From NCBI GenBank assembly GCA_016932315.1, contig JAFGDD010000008.1, positions 8,588-72,587 on the forward strand: 64,000 bases of DNA. The letters run 5' to 3'. A model generated the notes under the pieces. That model worked only from the letters and a program-made list of their open reading frames with translations. It ran no database searches and was not told the origin of the DNA. Positions 46,241 through 57,025 of the stretch are shown here, piece after piece; within the stretch, counting starts at the first letter, position 1, and each line of letters begins with the position of its first letter. The position numbers were made by a program, and so were the translations under genes. Source of the DNA: Candidatus Woesearchaeota archaeon. GTDB lineage: Archaea; Nanobdellota; Nanobdellia; Woesearchaeales; SM23-78.

Positions 46241-47881
46241 TCAGTCTTTCTCTCCATTACCATTCCCATTGTTACCATTATCATCTGCTTTTTCATCATC
46301 AGCTTCTCCTTTGAGTGATTCCATCTCCATTATTTCTTCCTGGATTTCTTTCTTCTTTATCATCTCATTAAGATGCTTTACAATCTTGTCCTTGCTTTCT
46401 CCTGTTAATCTTGCAAGAGCATCAGCAACTTCTGGAATATACCTCTCAAAAAGATTTGCTCTTTCTAATTGGTTCTTTACTCTGTGCTTCTTGTGAACAT
46501 AAGTCTGAAGCCTTCTTCCTGCTTCCTGCAATGCAAGCCTTATCTCGTCTATAATCTCAGGGTAGTGAGCTATTGCTTCTTTGCTTTCACTGGTGAAAGG
46601 AACCCACACGCTTGCTATATGCACTGCAATGGTTACTGGCCCTGTTGGCAGTGCTCCGTTGCTCTGCTGCAACCCATAAGGCTTCCAATTTGTTTGAGTT
46701 ACGCTCTTGTAAATGCTGCAAGCTCCTTGCTGGTAGAGCAATGGGACCCTGTTGGCGAATCGTAATAAGTTAATTGAGCCGTCTGCCTGTTGGTTTCCTC
46801 CATAAGCAATTGCTACTTCTACCTGGAACGGGTTGCCTCTGTAAACTGTCGGGCTCCTGCTGACTGCGCAGTAGAATTCTGCGTTAACCTCTTTTCTTAA
46901 TCCTTTCTCAAATAATTCCTCGCCTATCGGGCTTATGCAGTCTGTTGGCGGGCTTATTATTTTTGTCTCCTTGATTGCATTGATGAGCTTTTCAGCATCG
47001 TCTCTTGAAACCTTTTTTGGAGCTGTATTAGGAGGCACCAATGCTTTTTCGCAGATTTCCTTTGCAGTGCCAGGCCCGACTCTTGAGAACTCATTAGTAA
47101 GAAAGGCTTGCAATGTGCGGAACTCTGTGTTACTCATCATCTTCAAAAGAATTCCGAGCTCTACCCCGTATGGGTGAGGCTTTATCTCTTTTGGCTGCTT
47201 AGGCATTTGCTCGCTTGCTCTTGGAAATATTATCTGCTCTGCCTTAGGATTAACATAAGTGATTGTGACGTGAGGATTAATGATTGCAGTCTCTTTCAAG
47301 TATTCGTCAACGCTTTGAAGGCCTTTGAGATAGCTTCCTTCAATGTCAAGCTCTACCCTTGTTCCGTGAGGCTTATCCCATTCCTTGGCTTCATCTCCTA
47401 ATATTAATGGCTTGTTAGTGATTGTGTCTATTTTTAGCTCATAATAATTAGCAGGCTTGTTAGGAGCAATCTTGCTAAGGATTCTTGCAGGCCTGCCTGT
47501 TGTTAATTGGGCGTACATCACGCTTGCGCTTATTCCTATTCCTTGCTGCCCTCTGCCCTGCTTTAATCTGTGGAACTTGCTGCCGTAGAGAAGCTTTGCA
47601 AAGACTTTTGGTATTTGTTCCTTTACAATGCCTGGCCCATTATCCTCGACAACGACGCGAAAGCGCTCATTGCCCATGTCTATTAGTTCTACAAGTACTT
47701 CCGGCACTATTTCTGCTTCTTCGCAAGCATCTAATGAGTTGTCAACAGCTTCTTTTACTGCTGTTAGCAAGGCTTTTCTCTTATTATCAAAGCCTAGTAA
47801 GTGCCTGTTTTTCTCAAAGAATTCTGCAACAGAGATTTCTCTCTGCTTCTTTGCTAATTCCTCAGCCTTAGTAGTAGCCAT
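46241..47881 (-). CDS. top6B: DNA topoisomerase VI subunit B (GHKL ATPase)
   Basis: Bergerat-fold motifs (EAVDNSLDA, VEDNGPGI, GQQGIGISA). Immediately upstream of top6A. Confidence 0.9.
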   Translation of the reverse strand: MATTKAEELAKKQREISVAEFFEKNRHLLGFDNKRKALLTAVKEAVDNSLDACEEAEIVPEVLVELIDMGNERFRVVVEDNGPGIVKEQIPKVFAKLLYGSKFHRLKQGRGQQGIGISASVMYAQLTTGRPARILSKIAPNKPANYYELKIDTITNKPLILGDEAKEWDKPHGTRVELDIEGSYLKGLQSVDEYLKETAIINPHVTITYVNPKAEQIIFPRASEQMPKQPKEIKPHPYGVELGILLKMMSNTEFRTLQAFLTNEFSRVGPGTAKEICEKALVPPNTAPKKVSRDDAEKLINAIKETKIISPPTDCISPIGEELFEKGLRKEVNAEFYCAVSRSPTVYRGNPFQVEVAIAYGGNQQADGSINLLRFANRVPLLYQQGACSIYKSVTQTNWKPYGLQQSNGALPTGPVTIAVHIASVWVPFTSESKEAIAHYPEIIDEIRLALQEAGRRLQTYVHKKHRVKNQLERANLFERYIPEVADALARLTGESKDKIVKHLNEMIKKKEIQEEIMEMESLKGEADDEKADDNGNNGNGNGEKD

Positions 47882-48866: not shown

Positions 48867-49289
48867 TTACGGATAAAATTCTTTCAGGTTCTCCTTTATT
48901 ATGCTGTTCTTCATTTCAAGAGTTTTCCTGATTATGATTTTTCCTTGCTTTAACCCTATTTTTGTGCCGTAGTAATTGATGTTGTTCCTGATGAACCTTA
49001 ATCTGTCAAACAAATCATATTTTGCTCTTCCAAGAGCATCCTTTAGCAGGAGCCCAAGGCAGACGTGCGAGGTCACTTTGTAGCCTTTTGATATGCACAA
49101 TGCTTCCAAAGCTTCCCTTAAAGAGTCATAGGCTAGTGAAGCATAGACTGATATGTTTTCAGTGTCAAGGACTATTTTCCTTATTGCTTTTTCTTTTAGA
49201 TCGGACATCTCTATCAAGGATTTGATTAGATTAGAATCTATTCTTGTCTTCTTGATTAATCCTTTTTCAAAGCACTCATCGATGTCCAT
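48867..49289 (-). CDS. HEPN-like domain protein (partner of the upstream nucleotidyltransferase)
   Basis: All-alpha protein with RLRFIRNNINYYG, which is Rx4-6H-like with Tyr in place of His. 35-nt overlap with the MNT gene. Confidence 0.4.
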   Translation of the reverse strand: MDIDECFEKGLIKKTRIDSNLIKSLIEMSDLKEKAIRKIVLDTENISVYASLAYDSLREALEALCISKGYKVTSHVCLGLLLKDALGRAKYDLFDRLRFIRNNINYYGTKIGLKQGKIIIRKTLEMKNSIIKENLKEFYP

Positions 49290-49801
49290 TCCACGCTTCC
49301 CTGCAGGGTAATCCCGTTCAAGAGGTTGTTTATTAAATGCGTGTTGCTAAAATCGGAGATTTTCCGGGCGGTTAGCAAATGGATATTGTGCTTTAATTTT
49401 GATTCGTATTGCTTTAATTCCTTTGGAACACTGGTTTTCTCGCTGATGATTGCGATGTCCAAGTCACTGGTTTCTGTGTCGTAGCCTGATGAGAAAGAGC
49501 CGAATAAGATGATGATGGGCTTCAGGTAATAATTGTTCAGGAAGCTGATTAAGCCTGATTCTTTTATTGATTTTATATTATAATAAACCTTTAAGTCCCT
49601 GTATTCTTCTGATTCAATGTTTGCCTTGAAAAGTAAAAGATTCTTGAAATTTCTTTGCTTTAACAAGGATTTAGCAAAAGACTTTAACTTCTTGCTGGCA
49701 CTTGCAGGCGAGATATTTATTATTCTTGCTATTTCCCTTACATTGAATTCTTTCGTTGGGTTAATTAGGAAAGGCTTTAAAATGTTTAATTCATTAAACA
49801 T
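49256..49801 (-). CDS. wHTH + minimal nucleotidyltransferase (MNT) protein
   Basis: ILFGSFSSGYDTETSDLDIAIISE is the GS-x(n)-DxD Pol-beta-type NTase motif. N-terminal wHTH (FNVREIARIINISPASASKKL). Confidence 0.65.
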   Translation of the reverse strand: MFNELNILKPFLINPTKEFNVREIARIINISPASASKKLKSFAKSLLKQRNFKNLLLFKANIESEEYRDLKVYYNIKSIKESGLISFLNNYYLKPIIILFGSFSSGYDTETSDLDIAIISEKTSVPKELKQYESKLKHNIHLLTARKISDFSNTHLINNLLNGITLQGSVEWTSMSALKKD

Positions 49802-50157: not shown

Positions 50158-50676
50158 TTATGCTTCCAGCATCATGCTAATCTTAGCTATGAACTTTGTT
50201 GCGTTATTGAATATCTCTTCCAGTCTTCGCTGAGTGTAAGTCTTTATGGCTGAGTACCTTGCTATGCGGCTTTCTTTTTTTGCATCCTCAAAGTACTTCA
50301 CGTATTCATCCTCAAATATTTTGTAAGCTTGGTTTAATAGTTCTAAATCCTGTTTTTCCATTTCATCCGGCACTAGAAGGTAACCCAGTGCTATTTGCGC
50401 TGCATCATGGTCCCTTGCTTCATAGCCTTTGCTCAGGATGGCTGCTTTGGCTGAATAAAGCATTGAGTAATATGATACTGTGATTGCCCAGTAATCCCAG
50501 AAGAGCTTTTTAGGCTCTTTCAGCCTGATATCTTTCAAATGCTTTGCTATTAATAAGCTGTTCTTGGCTTTTTCCATGAACAATTTTATCTTGAAGAACT
50601 GGCTTGATTTCTTGATTCTGCTGTCTTTTAAGAATTCTTTGAATGATTCCTTGTACTCTTCCATGCAATCTCCCAA
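50158..50676 (-). CDS. HEPN-like all-alpha protein (partner of the upstream nucleotidyltransferase)
   Basis: 172-aa helical protein overlapping the MNT gene by 49 nt. Same arrangement as the 48867/49256 pair. Confidence 0.35.
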   Translation of the reverse strand: MGDCMEEYKESFKEFLKDSRIKKSSQFFKIKLFMEKAKNSLLIAKHLKDIRLKEPKKLFWDYWAITVSYYSMLYSAKAAILSKGYEARDHDAAQIALGYLLVPDEMEKQDLELLNQAYKIFEDEYVKYFEDAKKESRIARYSAIKTYTQRRLEEIFNNATKFIAKISMMLEA

Positions 50677-51212
50677 AAGGAAGAGGGGTTATTTAAAATG
50701 ATATGATTAATTTTCGCTTGTTTTCCGACGTTTTCGTCAGGCTTTCGGAGCATTGCCTTGAACTCAGACTCCTTTATGAAAATTGCATTGACTTTCTTTT
50801 TGTGCAATAATTCGAAAGAAGAAGATGAGAAAGACTTATTTCCTTTCTTGTTAATAACTAATAAATCAATATCGCTCTTGTCAGAAAATGAATTGTCAGC
50901 ATAGCTGCCGAACAATAAGATGATGTCATTTGATAATTCCTTTGAGAGCAAGGAGATTAATTTATTATGCTTAAGATAATCATTCTTTTCCTCAAAAGAA
51001 GAAACTGCAAGGTAAGACGAGATGATTGGATTGCCAGCTAATGAGATGATCTTAGCCTTGCCGACAGGCTTGATTATTAATAAATCCTTCATCCTGCTGA
51101 CAGTTCGGTAAAAAGTTGCATAAGGAATCTTAAGGATAGAACTAAGATTATGCATGGTAAAAGATTGATCGTTCTTACCCAGATAATTAATGATTCTTAA
51201 AATATTATCCAT
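50628..51212 (-). CDS. wHTH + minimal nucleotidyltransferase (MNT) protein, paralog
   Basis: LLFGSYADNSFSDKSDIDLLVI NTase motif. N-terminal wHTH (FTMHNLSSILKIPYATFYRTVSRM). Confidence 0.65.
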   Translation of the reverse strand: MDNILRIINYLGKNDQSFTMHNLSSILKIPYATFYRTVSRMKDLLIIKPVGKAKIISLAGNPIISSYLAVSSFEEKNDYLKHNKLISLLSKELSNDIILLFGSYADNSFSDKSDIDLLVINKKGNKSFSSSSFELLHKKKVNAIFIKESEFKAMLRKPDENVGKQAKINHIILNNPSSFWEIAWKSTRNHSKNS

Positions 51213-51254: not shown

Positions 51255-51529
51255 AAAGAGGGATGCATGGGGCGAAAAGAACTCATTGCGCTTTTTCTGC
51301 AAAATCTACGCTTTTTTATAATAGCATTTTATTAAGAACTTAATAAAAAATAATTTCATGGTCAATGAATTTACCACTGAAAAAAGCGCGGCACACTTAT
51401 ATTTTAAAAACAAAATAGATTTGTCTTTGTATCAACAACTCTTACAAAAAATTGCGGAAAGAAGGCATAAGAATGAAATTCTAAAAAAGAAAAATAGAAG
51501 AAGTATGTCATCGACAAAGTGGAACTGAG

Positions 51530-53404
51530 CTAGGCTTCCATCCTACTTCTAAAAAATCTTTCAACATCTTTATCCATAAAGTATACGTAACAGCCTTTCA
51601 TTCCACGTGAAAGCAATACGCGATAGACGTTTTTTACATATTTGACAAATTCATCTTTAGATCGTTTAACTTGAGAATCTGCCGAGTTTTCGGGTCGACC
51701 AATCCATTCCTGTTTATCGAAATCATATCCTAAATCTTTACCAACTATCACACCAACATAATCAAATTCAAATCCTTGAATCGTATAAATGCTTCCTGCC
51801 TGATTAACGCCGTTTGGGTCGTAAGCCCAAAGTGCAGCACGAGGAACGCCAGAGGCTAAAAATCTCGCTTCATTCTTACCTTCCCAAGTAATCTTAAAAT
51901 CCCCAATTACAACATCTTCTTTAAGAGTTCCATCTGGGTTTGGATCGCTCCACGACCAGCAAAATCCGGCAACTAATCTTGCAGAATTAGGTTTTTCTTT
52001 ATTTTTACCCTTTATTGTTTCATAAAGTTCTTGTGGAGAGCTAAATATTTTGAATTCAAAAGATTCTTTCTCATTCCATAATATGTTAGCAGTCTTTTTT
52101 ATCCCTAAAGTATTATTAATCCAATTAACAAACGCATCTGAACCTTGACATCTAAATTGCGCTTCCAGCTCGTATTCAAATATATTGCATGCATGCAGTT
52201 GAGCATATTCTTTTATATATGCTGTTGACCCCATCTCATCAGGTCGAACGTTTTGATCATCATCTATAAAAAAAACGCATACTTTGGCGACCTTTAAAAG
52301 CTCCTCTATTTGTGTTCCCCTTGACCTTTGGAGTGCAGGTGTAAATCTGCTGTTGCTAGTTTTTCTTATTCTGTGAGATTCATCAGAAATTAAAACATCG
52401 ATTTCATTTGGTTGAGCCTCGCGATAGCTGTTAAAATATTTAAACTGAATCGAACCACGAACCCCAATTATTTTTCTTAAAGTCTCTGTAAAAGCCTTTG
52501 ATCCTGTAGCATAATGCGCGTTATAACTTTTGAGTAAAAGGTCAGCCATTAAATTTATTGCAATAACTGATTTTCCCGTACCAGGCCCCCCTTTTACGAT
52601 TATAACGGCTTTCTGCTTATCATGAAAACCTTTTTTTGCGCAACTAAGAACTTTGTCATAAACAATTAACTGTTCATCCAATAAGATGTACTCTGATTTT
52701 CCTTTAATAATGCTTCCCACATGATCCATTAATTTTTTACTGGGTCGAAACTTGCTATTCTCTATTTTTGAAAGGATTTCCAAACCTTGTCCTTTATCTA
52801 GTTTGTGAAGTAAAAAATCTTTTAACTTTTCCACGTCATCCGCCGTAAATAAAGGAAATTTTTCAATTAATTTCTGGAATTTCTCTGAAAATATTACGTC
52901 GCTTTCATCAAAATGATAATTGTGTAAATATGTGCATGAATCCAGTTTAATATTATCTCCTTCACTATTGAATGCAGTATGTGAATCTTCTAAATACATT
53001 TGATACTGCCCTACTTGAGCAGAAGGATGCAGAACTTCTCTTTTACCTCCTCCTACCCAGGTTAAAACTTCATTTTCTCCGCTAGCATCTTCACACTTAT
53101 CCCATTGCTTAAGTTCAATAATGATTGCGTGCTCATTACCAGCCTCATCTTTGCCTGAAATCATACAGTCAAGCCTTTTAGAAGTTAAAGGCAACTGATA
53201 TTCTAAAATTATCCCATGATCCATTAAATTAGCGTATTGAAAAACTTGTGATATGGCACGCAATGAATTTCTCCAAGAAGTTATTTCTGCTGGGGAAGGA
53301 TTGAATCTGAAGTAGTTAAAAAAAGCAATTTTTAATTTTTCACTGATTTGGTTTTGTACAGTATCCTGAATGAATTGTTGAGATGAACCAGAATAAAGTC
53401 TCAT
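51530..53404 (-). CDS. PD-(D/E)xK nuclease-like N-terminal domain fused to DUF2075/Schlafen-like SF1-type P-loop ATPase
   Basis: N-terminus RLDCMISG...AIIIELKQW has the D...ExK pattern. The central region has Walker A IIVKGGPGTGKS and Walker B VLISDESHRI. Conserved DUF2075-like blocks (VFFIDDDQNV, RCQGS) lie toward the C-terminus. 624 aa. Confidence 0.65.
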   Translation of the reverse strand: MRLYSGSSQQFIQDTVQNQISEKLKIAFFNYFRFNPSPAEITSWRNSLRAISQVFQYANLMDHGIILEYQLPLTSKRLDCMISGKDEAGNEHAIIIELKQWDKCEDASGENEVLTWVGGGKREVLHPSAQVGQYQMYLEDSHTAFNSEGDNIKLDSCTYLHNYHFDESDVIFSEKFQKLIEKFPLFTADDVEKLKDFLLHKLDKGQGLEILSKIENSKFRPSKKLMDHVGSIIKGKSEYILLDEQLIVYDKVLSCAKKGFHDKQKAVIIVKGGPGTGKSVIAINLMADLLLKSYNAHYATGSKAFTETLRKIIGVRGSIQFKYFNSYREAQPNEIDVLISDESHRIRKTSNSRFTPALQRSRGTQIEELLKVAKVCVFFIDDDQNVRPDEMGSTAYIKEYAQLHACNIFEYELEAQFRCQGSDAFVNWINNTLGIKKTANILWNEKESFEFKIFSSPQELYETIKGKNKEKPNSARLVAGFCWSWSDPNPDGTLKEDVVIGDFKITWEGKNEARFLASGVPRAALWAYDPNGVNQAGSIYTIQGFEFDYVGVIVGKDLGYDFDKQEWIGRPENSADSQVKRSKDEFVKYVKNVYRVLLSRGMKGCYVYFMDKDVERFFRSRMEA

Positions 53405-53406
53405 TT

Positions 53407-53772
53407 TTATAATTCCGTATATTTTTTATTTAATCCCTTTATTTTTTCAACAGGGTATCTCTTTTCGTTTTTATCCATTTTTTTATTTAGTGCTGTTGTC
53501 AAATCAATATCGTATTTTTGTGATAGTCTTAAAAGAAAATAAAGAACGTCAGCCATTTCTTCAGATATTTCGCTTCTTTTTTCAGAATTACTAAATAACT
53601 CTTCCATTTGCGTACTAGTTTTAAATCTAAAATGGTCAAGAAGTTCTCCAGCTTCAGTTATTACGCCAATTGCCAATTCTTTAGCATCATGATATTGATC
53701 CCAGTCCCTGACTTCACAGAATATTCTTATTTTATCTTTGAGTTCCTGAATATTTGTTTTGGAATCCATCAT
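53407..53772 (-). CDS. MazG-like all-alpha NTP pyrophosphohydrolase (121 aa)
   Basis: Two EExxE/D metal-binding helices (GVITEAGELLDHF and ISEEMADVLYFLLRL). Its stop is 2 nt from the start of the DUF2075 gene. Confidence 0.6.
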   Translation of the reverse strand: MMDSKTNIQELKDKIRIFCEVRDWDQYHDAKELAIGVITEAGELLDHFRFKTSTQMEELFSNSEKRSEISEEMADVLYFLLRLSQKYDIDLTTALNKKMDKNEKRYPVEKIKGLNKKYTEL

Positions 53773-54026
53773 GAATGAGTGCTTTAAAAGAATATAAAAA
53801 CTTTCCTCTTTTTTCGGAATTCTTCCGCTTCCCCCTCTTCTCGTTAGAATTCGTGTTTGGAAGCGCCCAGATTTAATTTTCTTCTCGTTTTCTGAATAAG
53901 AATATCAATAATTGCCATTATTTCATCTCTATAAGTGCTAGACCGGTGATTTCGTTTAACATATTGATAGAATTAGTTTATAAGCTTCACGCGAGGATGT
54001 CCAGTGTGCACGGAATTCTTTCGGAA

Positions 54027-54396: not shown

Positions 54397-54831
54397 ATGA
54401 GAATAGTAGTGGATGCTAATGTACTCTGCGCAGCATTGCTTGCCAAGGGCAAGACTGCAGAACTCTTGTTCTCAGATCAGATAGAGCCCATTGCTCCTGA
54501 ATTATTGTTCACAGAACTTGAAAGGAACAGGGAAGAGCTTCTTGAAAAAACTAAGTTATCTGAAAATGATTTTAACATTCTCATAGCACTTTTCAGGAAA
54601 AGAATAAGAATAATCCCTGCAATAGAGTTCGCAGATAAGCTGATAGAAGCCAACCAGCTCTTAAAAAATCATAAAAAAGATACTGAGTTCGTCGCATTAG
54701 CTCTAAAACTTCATTGCCCATTATGGTCTAAGGAAAAAAGGCTCAAAAAGATTAATGGAATCCTTGTTCTGGATGCAAATGATATTACCGGAAGATTCTT
54801 TCCCGCTTCAAGCAAGGATGGTACAATCTAA
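54397..54831 (+). CDS. PIN-domain ribonuclease (VapC-like toxin)
   Basis: MRIVVDANVLCAALL opens with the first conserved Asp, and other acidic residues (E..ELE, LVLDAND) follow. 144 aa. Confidence 0.6.
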   Translation: MRIVVDANVLCAALLAKGKTAELLFSDQIEPIAPELLFTELERNREELLEKTKLSENDFNILIALFRKRIRIIPAIEFADKLIEANQLLKNHKKDTEFVALALKLHCPLWSKEKRLKKINGILVLDANDITGRFFPASSKDGTI

Positions 54832-55229
54832 CCAACTCTTTTCTCGAACTCCTTCCGGGAAATATGCTTGCTTTTAATTATATTATCAAGCTTTTTCTTG
54901 TAATCAGGTCTCAGCTTCTTGGCTAGTTCAGGGTTCCAGATGTATGCTATGCTGCCTTTCTTGTCCAGGGCTACCTTGTTTATGCTTTCAAGGTAATCCA
55001 ATGCCACAAGGTAAGTTTGCCACATCACTTTTTTCGGCAGGTTCTTCCATAGCTTTGTCCGGTCGTATTCCCCGCTGTGCTTCTCTATTGCTTTCTCTAT
55101 CATGAGCACTGTGCTAAGAGTCGGAGACCTTTCATAAGGGCTTTTTCGCATAAACAAGGTATATATCAATTGATATATAAAGCTTTCGTTCCTGAACTGA
55201 ACCATGAAAATACTCTTTGAACTGCTCAT
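54828..55229 (-). CDS. Hypothetical protein
   Basis: 133-aa ORF. Its start codon lies inside the 29-nt repeat at 55226-55254. Confidence 0.3.
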   Translation of the reverse strand: MSSSKSIFMVQFRNESFIYQLIYTLFMRKSPYERSPTLSTVLMIEKAIEKHSGEYDRTKLWKNLPKKVMWQTYLVALDYLESINKVALDKKGSIAYIWNPELAKKLRPDYKKKLDNIIKSKHISRKEFEKRVG

Positions 55230-56176: not shown

Positions 56177-57025
56177 ATGACAGAAAACGTTAATCATGAC
56201 AAAGCACTGGTTGTTTTCCAGGACAAAAAAATCAGAAGAGTTTGGCATAACAACGAATGGTTTTTCTCTGTTGTGGACGTTGTTCAGGCTTTGACAGAGA
56301 GTGCTGATGCTAAAGATTATTGGTACAGGCTCAAACAAAGAGAGGCAGAATCAAGCGGAATCGAGTTATCGACATTTTGTCGACAACTGAAATTACTAGC
56401 TTCTGATGGCAAACGTTATGAAACAGACTGCGCTAACACAAAGAGCATCTTCAGGATTATTCAGTCAATCCCATCACCCAAGGCTGAGCCTTTCAAATTA
56501 TGGCTTGCCAAAGTAGGCTATGAGCGTGTGCAGGAAATACAAGACCCTGAATTAGCTCAGAAGCGTATGAAAGAGCTTTACCGGGCAAAAGGATACTCTG
56601 ATGAATGGATTGAGAAGAGAGTCAGGGGTATCGCTATAAGGCAGGAGCTGACTGATGAGTGGAAGAACAGAGGCGTTGATGAGAATGTTGAGTTCGCGAT
56701 ATTAACCAATGATATTAGCAAGGCTACTTTTGGCAAGACTGTTGAGGAGTTCAAGCAATTCAAAGGTTTAAACAAGCAGAACTTAAGGGATCATATGAAT
56801 GATTTAGAATTAATATTTACTATGCTTGGTGAGAAAGTTACTTCAGAAATTACTCAAGCAAAAGACTCGCAAGGATTCAGGCAATGCCAGGATTCAGCAA
56901 AAAGAGGAGGAAGGGTTGCTGGAAAAGCTAGGAAAGAAGCTGAGAAAGAGATAGGCAAACCCATAACCGCGAAAGAAAACTTTCTTTCTGAGCCTGAAAA
57001 AGCCAAGAGAAAGAAGCTAAGGTGA
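56177..57025 (+). CDS. Bro-N domain protein (DinD / antirepressor-like)
   Basis: N-terminal IRRVWHNNEWFFSVVDVVQAL is Bro-N-like. The remainder resembles DinD-type proteins and has a basic C-terminal tail. Confidence 0.45.
   Translation: MTENVNHDKALVVFQDKKIRRVWHNNEWFFSVVDVVQALTESADAKDYWYRLKQREAESSGIELSTFCRQLKLLASDGKRYETDCANTKSIFRIIQSIPSPKAEPFKLWLAKVGYERVQEIQDPELAQKRMKELYRAKGYSDEWIEKRVRGIAIRQELTDEWKNRGVDENVEFAILTNDISKATFGKTVEEFKQFKGLNKQNLRDHMNDLELIFTMLGEKVTSEITQAKDSQGFRQCQDSAKRGGRVAGKARKEAEKEIGKPITAKENFLSEPEKAKRKKLR

Follow-up and report, generated by a model that had tools for sequence, protein, structure and literature searches.

A gene for a MazG-type nucleoside triphosphate pyrophosphatase (NTP-PPase) and a gene for a DUF2075-containing nuclease-helicase form a real, widespread two-gene cassette, one copy of which lies in a 64,000-nt stretch of contig JAFGDD010000008.1 (hereafter the window) from a Candidatus Woesearchaeota archaeon. 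All coordinates below are positions in the window, and both genes are among the open reading frames (ORFs) listed over 47-58.5 kb. The MazG gene (53407..53772, minus strand, TAA stop included) encodes a 121-aa all-alpha enzyme of the DCTPP1/RS21-C6-like subfamily. The gene that follows it (51530..53404, minus strand, stop codon included) encodes a 624-aa protein in which an N-terminal PD-(D/E)xK-like domain precedes a DUF2075/Schlafen-group-3 helicase of superfamily 1B (SF1B). An earlier note on this DNA had placed both ORFs here and had proposed them as an undescribed defence pair; the placement is correct, and a role in defence against viruses or plasmids is the most likely one.

Both proteins have database counterparts with 100% identity. 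The 624-aa protein corresponds to P0001 from Ca. Woesearchaeota archaeon, and the MazG protein to P0241, named 'nucleotide pyrophosphohydrolase [Ca. Woesearchaeota]', for which NCBI places the start at the second ATG (53769), giving 120 aa.

MazG is conserved beside DUF2075 nuclease-helicase genes

When each GTDB species was represented by a single genome, a scan recovered 80 loci, and these span more than 15 phyla of bacteria and archaea. MazG was found in 61 of these; in 58 it lay upstream on the same strand, in 49 of those it directly abutted the DUF2075 gene, and the gap between the two genes was -1 to 18 nt in 44 of the 80 loci. All-vs-all clustering of the ORFs in the ~4 kb flanks of the 80 loci identified MazG as the sole other gene family conserved around DUF2075. 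The remaining clustered 'families', which were considered as a possible third component, proved to be shadow ORFs inside the DUF2075 gene and were rejected. The pairing was also recovered from the opposite direction: reverse sampling from MazG gave 37 metagenome loci, 30 of them informative, and a DUF2075 gene lay immediately downstream in 21 of the 30 (19 of 24 at a MazG identity of at least 60%). Exact-protein look-ups of MazG found PF09848, the DUF2075 family, in the next gene in seven of eight cases, and RefSeq plasmids of Priestia aryabhattai and Halalkalicoccus jeotgali carry a 'nucleotide pyrophosphohydrolase' directly 5' of a 'DUF2075 domain-containing protein'. The earlier note had made its proposal depend on such conservation, which these counts establish. 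No MazG-DUF2075 fusion was seen in the Pfam annotations of the 240 homologues listed.

Most of the 80 loci encode proteins ~59-73% identical to the window's 624-aa protein, and they do so across domains; the groups at 60-73% identity include Omnitrophota, Planctomycetota, Bacillota, Thermoplasmatota, Methanosarcinales and Bathyarchaeia. This high cross-domain identity implies horizontal transfer. The nuclease-helicase family is large: clustering at 50% identity leaves 803 representatives with E <= 1e-30, and at 90% the clusters number in the thousands. The pairing outlasts a reshuffling of partner lineages. MazG proteins with 60-81% identity to that of the window pair with DUF2075 proteins at 31-71%, and in Halalkalicoccus the MazG protein is 56% and the DUF2075 protein 34% identical to its counterpart in the window. 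Adjacency that is kept through such re-assortment points to functional coupling and is stronger evidence for it than shared descent alone. The two genes are co-inherited. In the close clade the MazG and DUF2075 trees are congruent, their distance matrices being correlated (Mantel r = 0.56, a value reached by none of 2000 permutations). Mean identity is 44% for MazG and 67% for the effector.

These data bear on the possibility that the linked genes work independently of each other, with MazG a housekeeping nucleotide-pool enzyme that hitch-hikes in the operon. MazG-like genes commonly stand alone, and distant MazG relatives (41-47% identity) adjoin the gene for the housekeeping rRNA methyltransferase RsmH/MraW (loci L113, L115 and L116). 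From its neighbours, however, the close MazG subfamily alone appears to be dedicated to nucleases, being found almost only beside DUF2075 or other nuclease genes. The breadth of the adjacency, its persistence after partner re-assortment and the tight gaps likewise speak against independence, which we rank as the least probable of the alternatives considered here. The nuclease-helicase also does not behave as a housekeeping helicase in a core syntenic position, a possibility that the earlier note had raised: its neighbourhoods vary and are rich in defence genes, its identity across phyla is 60-73%, and the window's copy lies in a low-GC island. That no core synteny is found around it speaks against housekeeping.

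A distant Bacilli clade (33-37% identical) retains MazG, either with a cargo gene inserted between the partners or with MazG just downstream. The cargo gene differs from locus to locus (L062, L064, L065, L066 and L069 in Bacilli; L052 in Woesearchaeota), encoding an HNH endonuclease, a Hypoth_Ymh protein or proteins of 230-390 aa, as if the cassette had a slot whose content varies.

The 624-aa protein is predicted to combine a nuclease domain and an SF1B helicase

Translation of the 624-aa ORF contains the four motifs that the earlier note had read in it (RLDCMISG, IIIELKQW, GGPGTGKS and DESH). Residues 265-611 (51572..52612, minus strand) match PF09848 (3.8e-86), a family whose current name is 'Schlafen group 3 DNA/RNA helicase domain'. 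Residue conservation was assessed in an alignment of 42 homologues, down to 36% identity. In this alignment the Walker A motif GGPGTGKS (G272-S279; 52568..52591, minus strand) is invariant, as are D341, E342 and H344 of the Walker B/motif II sequence DESH (D341-H344; 52373..52384, minus strand). A sequence search returned no solved structure for the protein. The full-length AlphaFold2 model (predicted local distance difference test, pLDDT, of 79) has as its best solved Foldseek matches SLFN11 (top), RecD, T4 Dda, RecD2 and Dna2, with E values of 1e-11 to 1e-8; on these model-based matches the ATPase half is placed among the SF1B helicases.

The N-terminal domain (residues 1-236; 52697..53404, minus strand) is predicted to have a PD-(D/E)xK-like fold. 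Modelled alone, the 236 residues gave a confident model (pLDDT 86.6, predicted template modelling score 0.85). Foldseek of this domain yielded no significant nuclease match, its best hits, EcoT38I and EndoMS, also being nucleases, and because the search was not significant we regard the predicted fold as moderately rather than strongly supported on structure alone. Sequence conservation reinforces the assignment. The predicted catalytic aspartate, D79 (the D of RLDCMISG; 53168..53170, minus strand), is at the start of strand β2 (predicted residues 78-85), and the predicted catalytic ExK, E97-L-K99 (in IIIELKQW; 53108..53116, minus strand), is on strand β3 (predicted residues 91-99). E68, D79, E97, L98, K99, Q100 and W101 are all invariant among the 42 homologues, and it is the invariance of E68, D79, E97, K99 and Q100 on the predicted strands β2 and β3 that strengthens the case. 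The nuclease fold proposed in the earlier note is largely borne out by the confident model and the invariant residues; the structural search was not significant.

The description 'Schlafen-like' holds for one half of the protein. It suits the helicase, by its membership of PF09848, and not the nuclease half, since the Schlafen-core RNase domain (AlbA_2, Ex4ExK) was not found in the 624-aa protein; we therefore rejected its classification as a 'prokaryotic Schlafen' RNase. A Pfam scan of the protein detected no modified-base reader (SRA, EVE/PUA, DUF3427) and no GmrSD-type domain, and so gives no grounds for calling it a type IV enzyme. As to a viral origin, relatives were absent from IMG/VR and present in only 4 of 50,697 phage records, and the 624-aa protein had no PHROG match. 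Given this near-absence from virus collections, a viral origin was rejected; the gene is not a typical phage gene.

The MazG partner resembles DCTPP1

The upstream protein matches PF12643 (MazG-like; 3.3e-13, 50.1 bits against a cut-off of 27) and PF03819 (MazG; 8.4e-8, 32.8 against 22), and both acidic motifs can be read in it, in accord with its earlier description as a MazG-type NTP-PPase with two acidic helices. It is a single-domain protein, and the NCBIfam mazG/YabN-type models score far below their cut-offs. In a phmmer search of the PDB its closest solved relatives were mammalian dCTP pyrophosphatase 1/RS21-C6 (6sqw, 2a3q; 1.9e-18, residues 10-121), with the archaeal MazG-like pyrophosphatase 4qgp at 1.4e-17. 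The first metal-binding motif, E40-A-G-E43 (53644..53655, minus strand), aligns with DCTPP1 Glu63 and Glu66, and the second, E72-M-A-D75 (53548..53559, minus strand), with Glu95 and Asp98. W24 aligns with DCTPP1 Trp47, and the RDWxQ(F/Y)H motif is kept. In the RS21-C6 structures the four acidic residues are metal ligands.

E40, E43, E72, D75, K98, R22 and W24 are invariant among 62 MazG proteins that adjoin DUF2075 genes. The invariance of the metal-binding residues indicates that the partner is an active enzyme under purifying selection. MazG has pyrophosphatase matches in PHROG and matched none of 5027 PADLOC models. Pfam detected no HTH, RHH or AbrB domain in it, and the gene thus does not qualify as the antitoxin of a type II toxin-antitoxin (TA) system. 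Regulation of the (p)ppGpp level, as for E. coli MazEFG, was considered and is unlikely, because the protein is single-domain and DCTPP1-like and the window's MazEF is a separate cassette, 1.7 kb from the pair.

Junction and putative promoter

The two genes abut at the junction TAA-AA-ATG (53402..53409, minus strand; context ...TTA TAA AA ATG AGA...), in which 2 nt separate the MazG stop codon from the ATG of the helicase gene. This is the spacing that the earlier note had given in its text; the word 'overlapping' in its title is incorrect, as the genes share no nucleotide. The 2-nt spacer suggests translational coupling of the two genes. A TATA-like box of archaeal type, TTTTTATATT (53791..53800, minus strand), lies ~23 nt 5' of the first MazG ATG and is preceded by a purine-rich stretch resembling a B recognition element. 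By the general features of archaeal promoters, TTTTTATATT is a putative promoter element, and a leaderless operon transcript is likely.

At the other end of the pair, a 56-aa Lys/Arg-rich ORF (51358-51528, plus strand) faces the DUF2075 gene tail to tail and stops 1 nt short of the stop codon of that gene. Pfam and PHROG gave no match for this ORF, which we list as a candidate gene only.

Fusions and neighbours in related loci

Homologues of the nuclease-helicase frequently carry an additional domain. A C-terminal LexA/UmuD-type S24 domain is present in 65 of the 120 closest homologues (for example residues 664-796 of P0006; the loci with S24 include L001-L004, L013, L016, L018 and L021), and the window's copy is a short form that lacks it. 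In P0117 a helix-turn-helix domain takes the place of S24. The S24 motifs are mostly intact: all 65 proteins keep GxSM, 61 keep the Lys motif and 61 have an A[AC]G motif resembling a cleavage site. This suggests that the S24 variants are activated by RecA-ssDNA (single-stranded DNA) filaments through self-cleavage.

Such a switch could belong to a mobile module for DNA damage or replication stress, in which MazG would clear dNTPs that are damaged or non-canonical, the nuclease-helicase would act on damaged DNA or on forks that have stalled, and RecA-stimulated self-cleavage of S24 would throw the switch in many homologues. This reading gains from the structural relatives of the protein, which include the repair enzymes RecD, RecD2, Dna2 and NucS/EndoMS, from the MutT, RmuC and exonuclease VII genes near some copies of the cassette, and from the action of SLFN11 at stressed replication forks, as cited in PMC6765204. 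Its distribution, however, is patchy and cross-domain at the identities given above, core synteny is not conserved around it and only MazG is kept nearby, and it sits in low-GC islands with TA, restriction-modification and CRISPR genes. Pseudogenes are frequent, which is what one sees with defence genes rather than with repair genes, and cleavage triggered by RecA* would serve equally well as a sensor of phage replication. We consider a stress-response role quite unlikely.

Where a close MazG relative has no DUF2075 gene after it, another nuclease gene can take that place, namely a GmrSD_N type IV nuclease (L111:4340-4996) or an HNH nuclease (L104:606-1337, L120:480-2285). In a further locus an SRA-HNH gene lies just upstream of a MazG-DUF2075 pair (L132:2256-2945). 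Related adjacencies have been published: HNH nucleases of 'Group 23' (His-Me finger) are encoded beside MazG genes (Jablonska et al. 2017, PMC5714182), and DUF2075 NTPases adjoin modification-dependent endonucleases (PMC6765204). More widely, the neighbours at other loci include HNH, SoFic, Cas1, HsdR, type II methyltransferases, NYN, KwaA, SRA-HNH, PDC-S04 and PDC-S41.

Several individual loci are of note in their own right. In another locus MazG is followed by a gene for a 448-aa protein, and elsewhere KwaA lies nearby (L133:2439-4709 is among the loci listed). Long Cas1 homologues (516 and 586 aa; PF01867, ~1e-36 to 1e-40) are encoded directly 5' of an intact DUF2075 gene, on the same strand and with no MazG, in two Acidobacteria loci (L036:4370-5917, L043:4161-5918). 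A second DUF2075 paralogue stands in tandem in three genome loci and matches PADLOC PDC-S41 at up to 3e-288; a tandem paralogue is also present on the Hymenobacter canadensis plasmid NZ_CP114769 (L081), where no MazG is annotated.

The cassette lies in an accessory island

In the window, which also holds archaeal core genes, the pair is part of an accessory block flanked by core genes, with topoisomerase VI-B (ending at 47881) on one side and PHP and KH-domain proteins (from 57096) on the other. The block contains a DUF4258/DUF2283 pair, two HEPN-nucleotidyltransferase (HEPN-MNT) pairs, the MazG-DUF2075 pair, a PIN gene with its antitoxin, MazE-MazF and a Bro-N protein, and these domain assignments confirm that the region is rich in TA and HEPN/MNT modules, as the earlier note had described it. 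The HEPN-MNT pairs are in tandem (48867-49801 and 50158-51212, minus strand) with overlaps of 34-49 nt between the genes of a pair; both nucleotidyltransferases match PADLOC PDC-M05A and one HEPN matches PDC-M05B. The Bro-N protein (282 aa; 56177-57025, plus strand) matches the PADLOC candidate PDC-S13 almost end to end (3e-121). GC content is 0.342 in the pair, 0.366 in the island and 0.404 in the window as a whole.

No tRNA gene was found in the window, nor any repeat pair that brackets the module or the island. Direct repeats do occur between cassettes, at 54027-54068/55321-55362 (42 nt, 88% identity), 55226-55254/57043-57071 (29 nt, 97% identity) and 48020-48042/51313-51335 (23 nt, 87% identity). 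Several of the intergenic repeats hold TATA-like sequences, for example 5' of the PIN and MazEF operons, and these repeats may serve several cassettes of the island as common promoters or operators. A 133-aa ORF (54828-55229, minus strand), located between those for PIN and MazEF, had no match in Pfam, PADLOC or PHROG; a similar 91-aa protein, sharing the motif 'SPTLNTVLMVEE...', is encoded in the MazG locus L089.

The company of classical TA modules raises the question whether the pair is itself a selfish, TA-like addiction module, kept since its loss kills the cell and bringing no antiviral benefit. The layout of a small upstream gene and a large downstream nuclease would suit such a module, as would its horizontal spread and the association, described below, between a missing MazG and a broken effector. 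Against this, MazG is an active and conserved enzyme in which neither a DNA-binding nor an obvious toxin-binding domain is present, some intact effectors lack a MazG partner, the order of the genes can be reversed and the pair can be interrupted by a cargo gene, and the architecture of the effector matches that of experimentally validated defence proteins. We judge addiction very unlikely, ahead only of functional independence.

Proposed function

The explanation we prefer, while giving it a little less than an even chance, is that the pair is a horizontally mobile cassette that defends against viruses or other invading DNA by an attack on two fronts; its phenotype, substrates and coupling are what we infer from sequence and models. 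In this scheme the 624-aa protein would be an Nhi-type enzyme whose ATP-driven SF1B helicase (Dda/RecD2/SLFN11-like) would engage DNA that is foreign or being replicated and pass it to the PD-(D/E)xK nuclease at the N terminus. The translationally coupled MazG, of DCTPP1/RS21-C6 type, would hydrolyse dNTPs to monophosphates, most probably those of cytosine type including 5-modified ones, and would thereby deprive the invader of the dCTP, canonical or in a phage-specific modified form, on which it depends to replicate and to protect its DNA. The nuclease-helicase would then degrade the invader's DNA. The (modified) dCTP pool is suggested as the target by the type IV and HNH nucleases that neighbour MazG, together with its DCTPP1-like identity. 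Speaking for defence as such are the Nhi-type architecture, the cross-domain transfer, the frequent pseudogenes, the low-GC islands and the heterogeneous defence genes that surround the cassette.

Several findings weigh against this explanation. In ten homologous loci the DUF2075 gene is intact and MazG is missing; MazG is thus a frequent and not an obligatory partner, and the nuclease-helicase, like Nhi, can occur by itself. The Foldseek search of the N-terminal domain was not significant, as described above, and the PADLOC matches of the 624-aa protein to Nhi, AbiO and PDC-S41 are only partial, giving it full membership of none of these families. In MazG, Ile stands at the position of DCTPP1 His38, and Phe at those of Trp73 and Tyr102; substrate preference cannot be read from the sequence. 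A role in DNA damage would likewise be consistent with the S24 domain that about half of the close homologues carry. Finally, if the nuclease prefers modified DNA, the removal of modified dNTPs by MazG would be partly counter-productive.

A serious rival, although in our estimate an unlikely one, is a defence pair in which MazG protects. It would clear recycled or phage-derived 5-methyl- and 5-hydroxymethyl-dCTP so that host DNA is spared, or it would restrain the effector, in the manner of an antitoxin, until infection. The accepted cellular role of DCTPP1 is to prevent the incorporation of modified dCTP. A small upstream gene in a translationally coupled position fits protection, as does the faster evolution of MazG relative to the effector. 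DUF2075 genes are, moreover, more often split or truncated where MazG is absent (7 of 17 loci, compared with 6 of 53; Fisher p = 0.011; L005, L038, L051, L053, L057, L060 and L079 were compared with the rest). Also in favour of protection are the GmrSD_N and HNH genes that follow close MazG relatives, the SRA-HNH gene by the L132 pair, and the published adjacency of MazG to HNH nucleases and of DUF2075 to modification-dependent endonucleases.

Each of these points has a limit. The link between MazG loss and broken effectors could reflect protection by MazG, and could also reflect decay of the whole cassette or assembly errors in metagenome-assembled genomes; it is not proof of toxicity. The ten intact DUF2075 genes without MazG indicate that the effector is not obligatorily lethal alone, Pfam detected no SRA, EVE or PUA domain in the 624-aa protein, and the type IV associations amount to a handful of loci. 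The attack on two fronts is ranked slightly above protection because effectors exist without MazG and because removal of the sole cytosine nucleotide would halt a cytosine-replacing phage.

A broader proposal, which we put forward as possible and hold to be doubtful, is that DCTPP1-type MazG is a dedicated partner of DNA-targeting immune nucleases in archaea and bacteria, mainly of Nhi-type enzymes and also of GmrSD/HNH nucleases. Control of the dNTP pool would then be built into nuclease defence, either starving cytosine-replacing viruses or keeping 'foreign' marks out of host DNA, with a parallel in human DCTPP1 and SLFN11.

The implications reach beyond the window. The nuclease-helicase family is spread over most prokaryotic phyla, including the DPANN archaea, in which defence biology has scarcely been tested. 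If MazG is required, the 'single-gene' annotation of DUF2075 defence proteins misses a component, and MazG enzymes, known mainly from phage counter-defence or housekeeping, would gain a role in host immunity if the proposed function is true. The DCTPP1-like identity and the type IV nuclease associations provide a testable tie between modified-nucleotide pools and DNA-targeting immunity, and the S24 domain fused to half of the relatives points to RecA*/ssDNA as a possible trigger. Human relatives exist for both halves, the SLFN11-type helicases and DCTPP1.

Comparison with known systems

The nearest described systems are Nhi (S. epidermidis SERP2475; Bari et al. 2022) and 'Nhi-like' proteins (Millman et al. 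2022), which are experimentally validated single-gene anti-phage proteins with an N-terminal nuclease and DUF2075. The 624-aa protein shares with them the joining of an N-terminal PD-(D/E)xK nuclease, here predicted, to a DUF2075/SF1B helicase in one polypeptide of ~600 aa, as well as Dda/Upf1/Dna2-like structural relatives and a location in defence islands. However, the PADLOC Nhi model PDLC02372 matches only residues 236-470 (4.7e-12; model positions 178-376 of 470), leaving the nuclease domain and the C-terminal half uncovered. The descriptions of Nhi and Nhi-like proteins involve one gene each, whereas the present nuclease-helicase has a conserved MazG partner; many of its relatives add a LexA-type S24 domain, and its host is an archaeon. 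The DUF2075 ATPase core is also shared with PADLOC PDC-S41 and AbiO, and PDC-S41 genes sometimes lie beside the cassette. The PDC-S41 match (4.3e-18) is confined to three short stretches and the AbiO match (4.8e-14) to residues 236-470; both form separate clades, and we have seen no MazG partner described for them.

Schlafens of group III (SLFN11, SLFN5, SLFN13 and SLFN14) have the same C-terminal helicase family, PF09848, and an antiviral or replication-stress role, and differ in their possession of the Schlafen-core RNase domain. DCTPP1/RS21-C6 (XTP3TPA) and 4qgp align with the window's MazG over its full length and share its ExxE...ExxD residues and RDWxQ(F/Y)H motif; DCTPP1 is a eukaryotic housekeeping sanitiser of the nucleotide pool, whereas the window's MazG is on a mobile island in an operon with a nuclease-helicase. 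MazG-type pyrophosphatases are already known in the conflict between phage and host, on the phage side, whereas the MazG described here is host-encoded.

Defence by nucleotide depletion (dCTP deaminase, dGTPase; Tal et al. 2022) likewise places a dNTP-pool-modifying enzyme in a defence context. MazG, however, belongs to another enzyme superfamily, one without a PADLOC match here, and, instead of acting by itself, is paired with a separate DNA-degrading effector. The His-Me finger 'Group 23' HNH nucleases (PMC5714182) resemble the cassette in that a MazG-family gene adjoins a nuclease gene; there the partner is HNH, and the link was interpreted through E. coli MazEFG stress signalling rather than defence or the dNTP pool.

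The pairing was not found as a named system in PADLOC v2 or in the full-text searchable literature, which misses most subscription journals, in agreement with the earlier note. The nuclease-DUF2075 half is a new member, divergent in sequence, of the already known Nhi-like architecture. What is newly noted is its conserved DCTPP1-type MazG partner, and together the two probably make up an undescribed two-part antiviral cassette.

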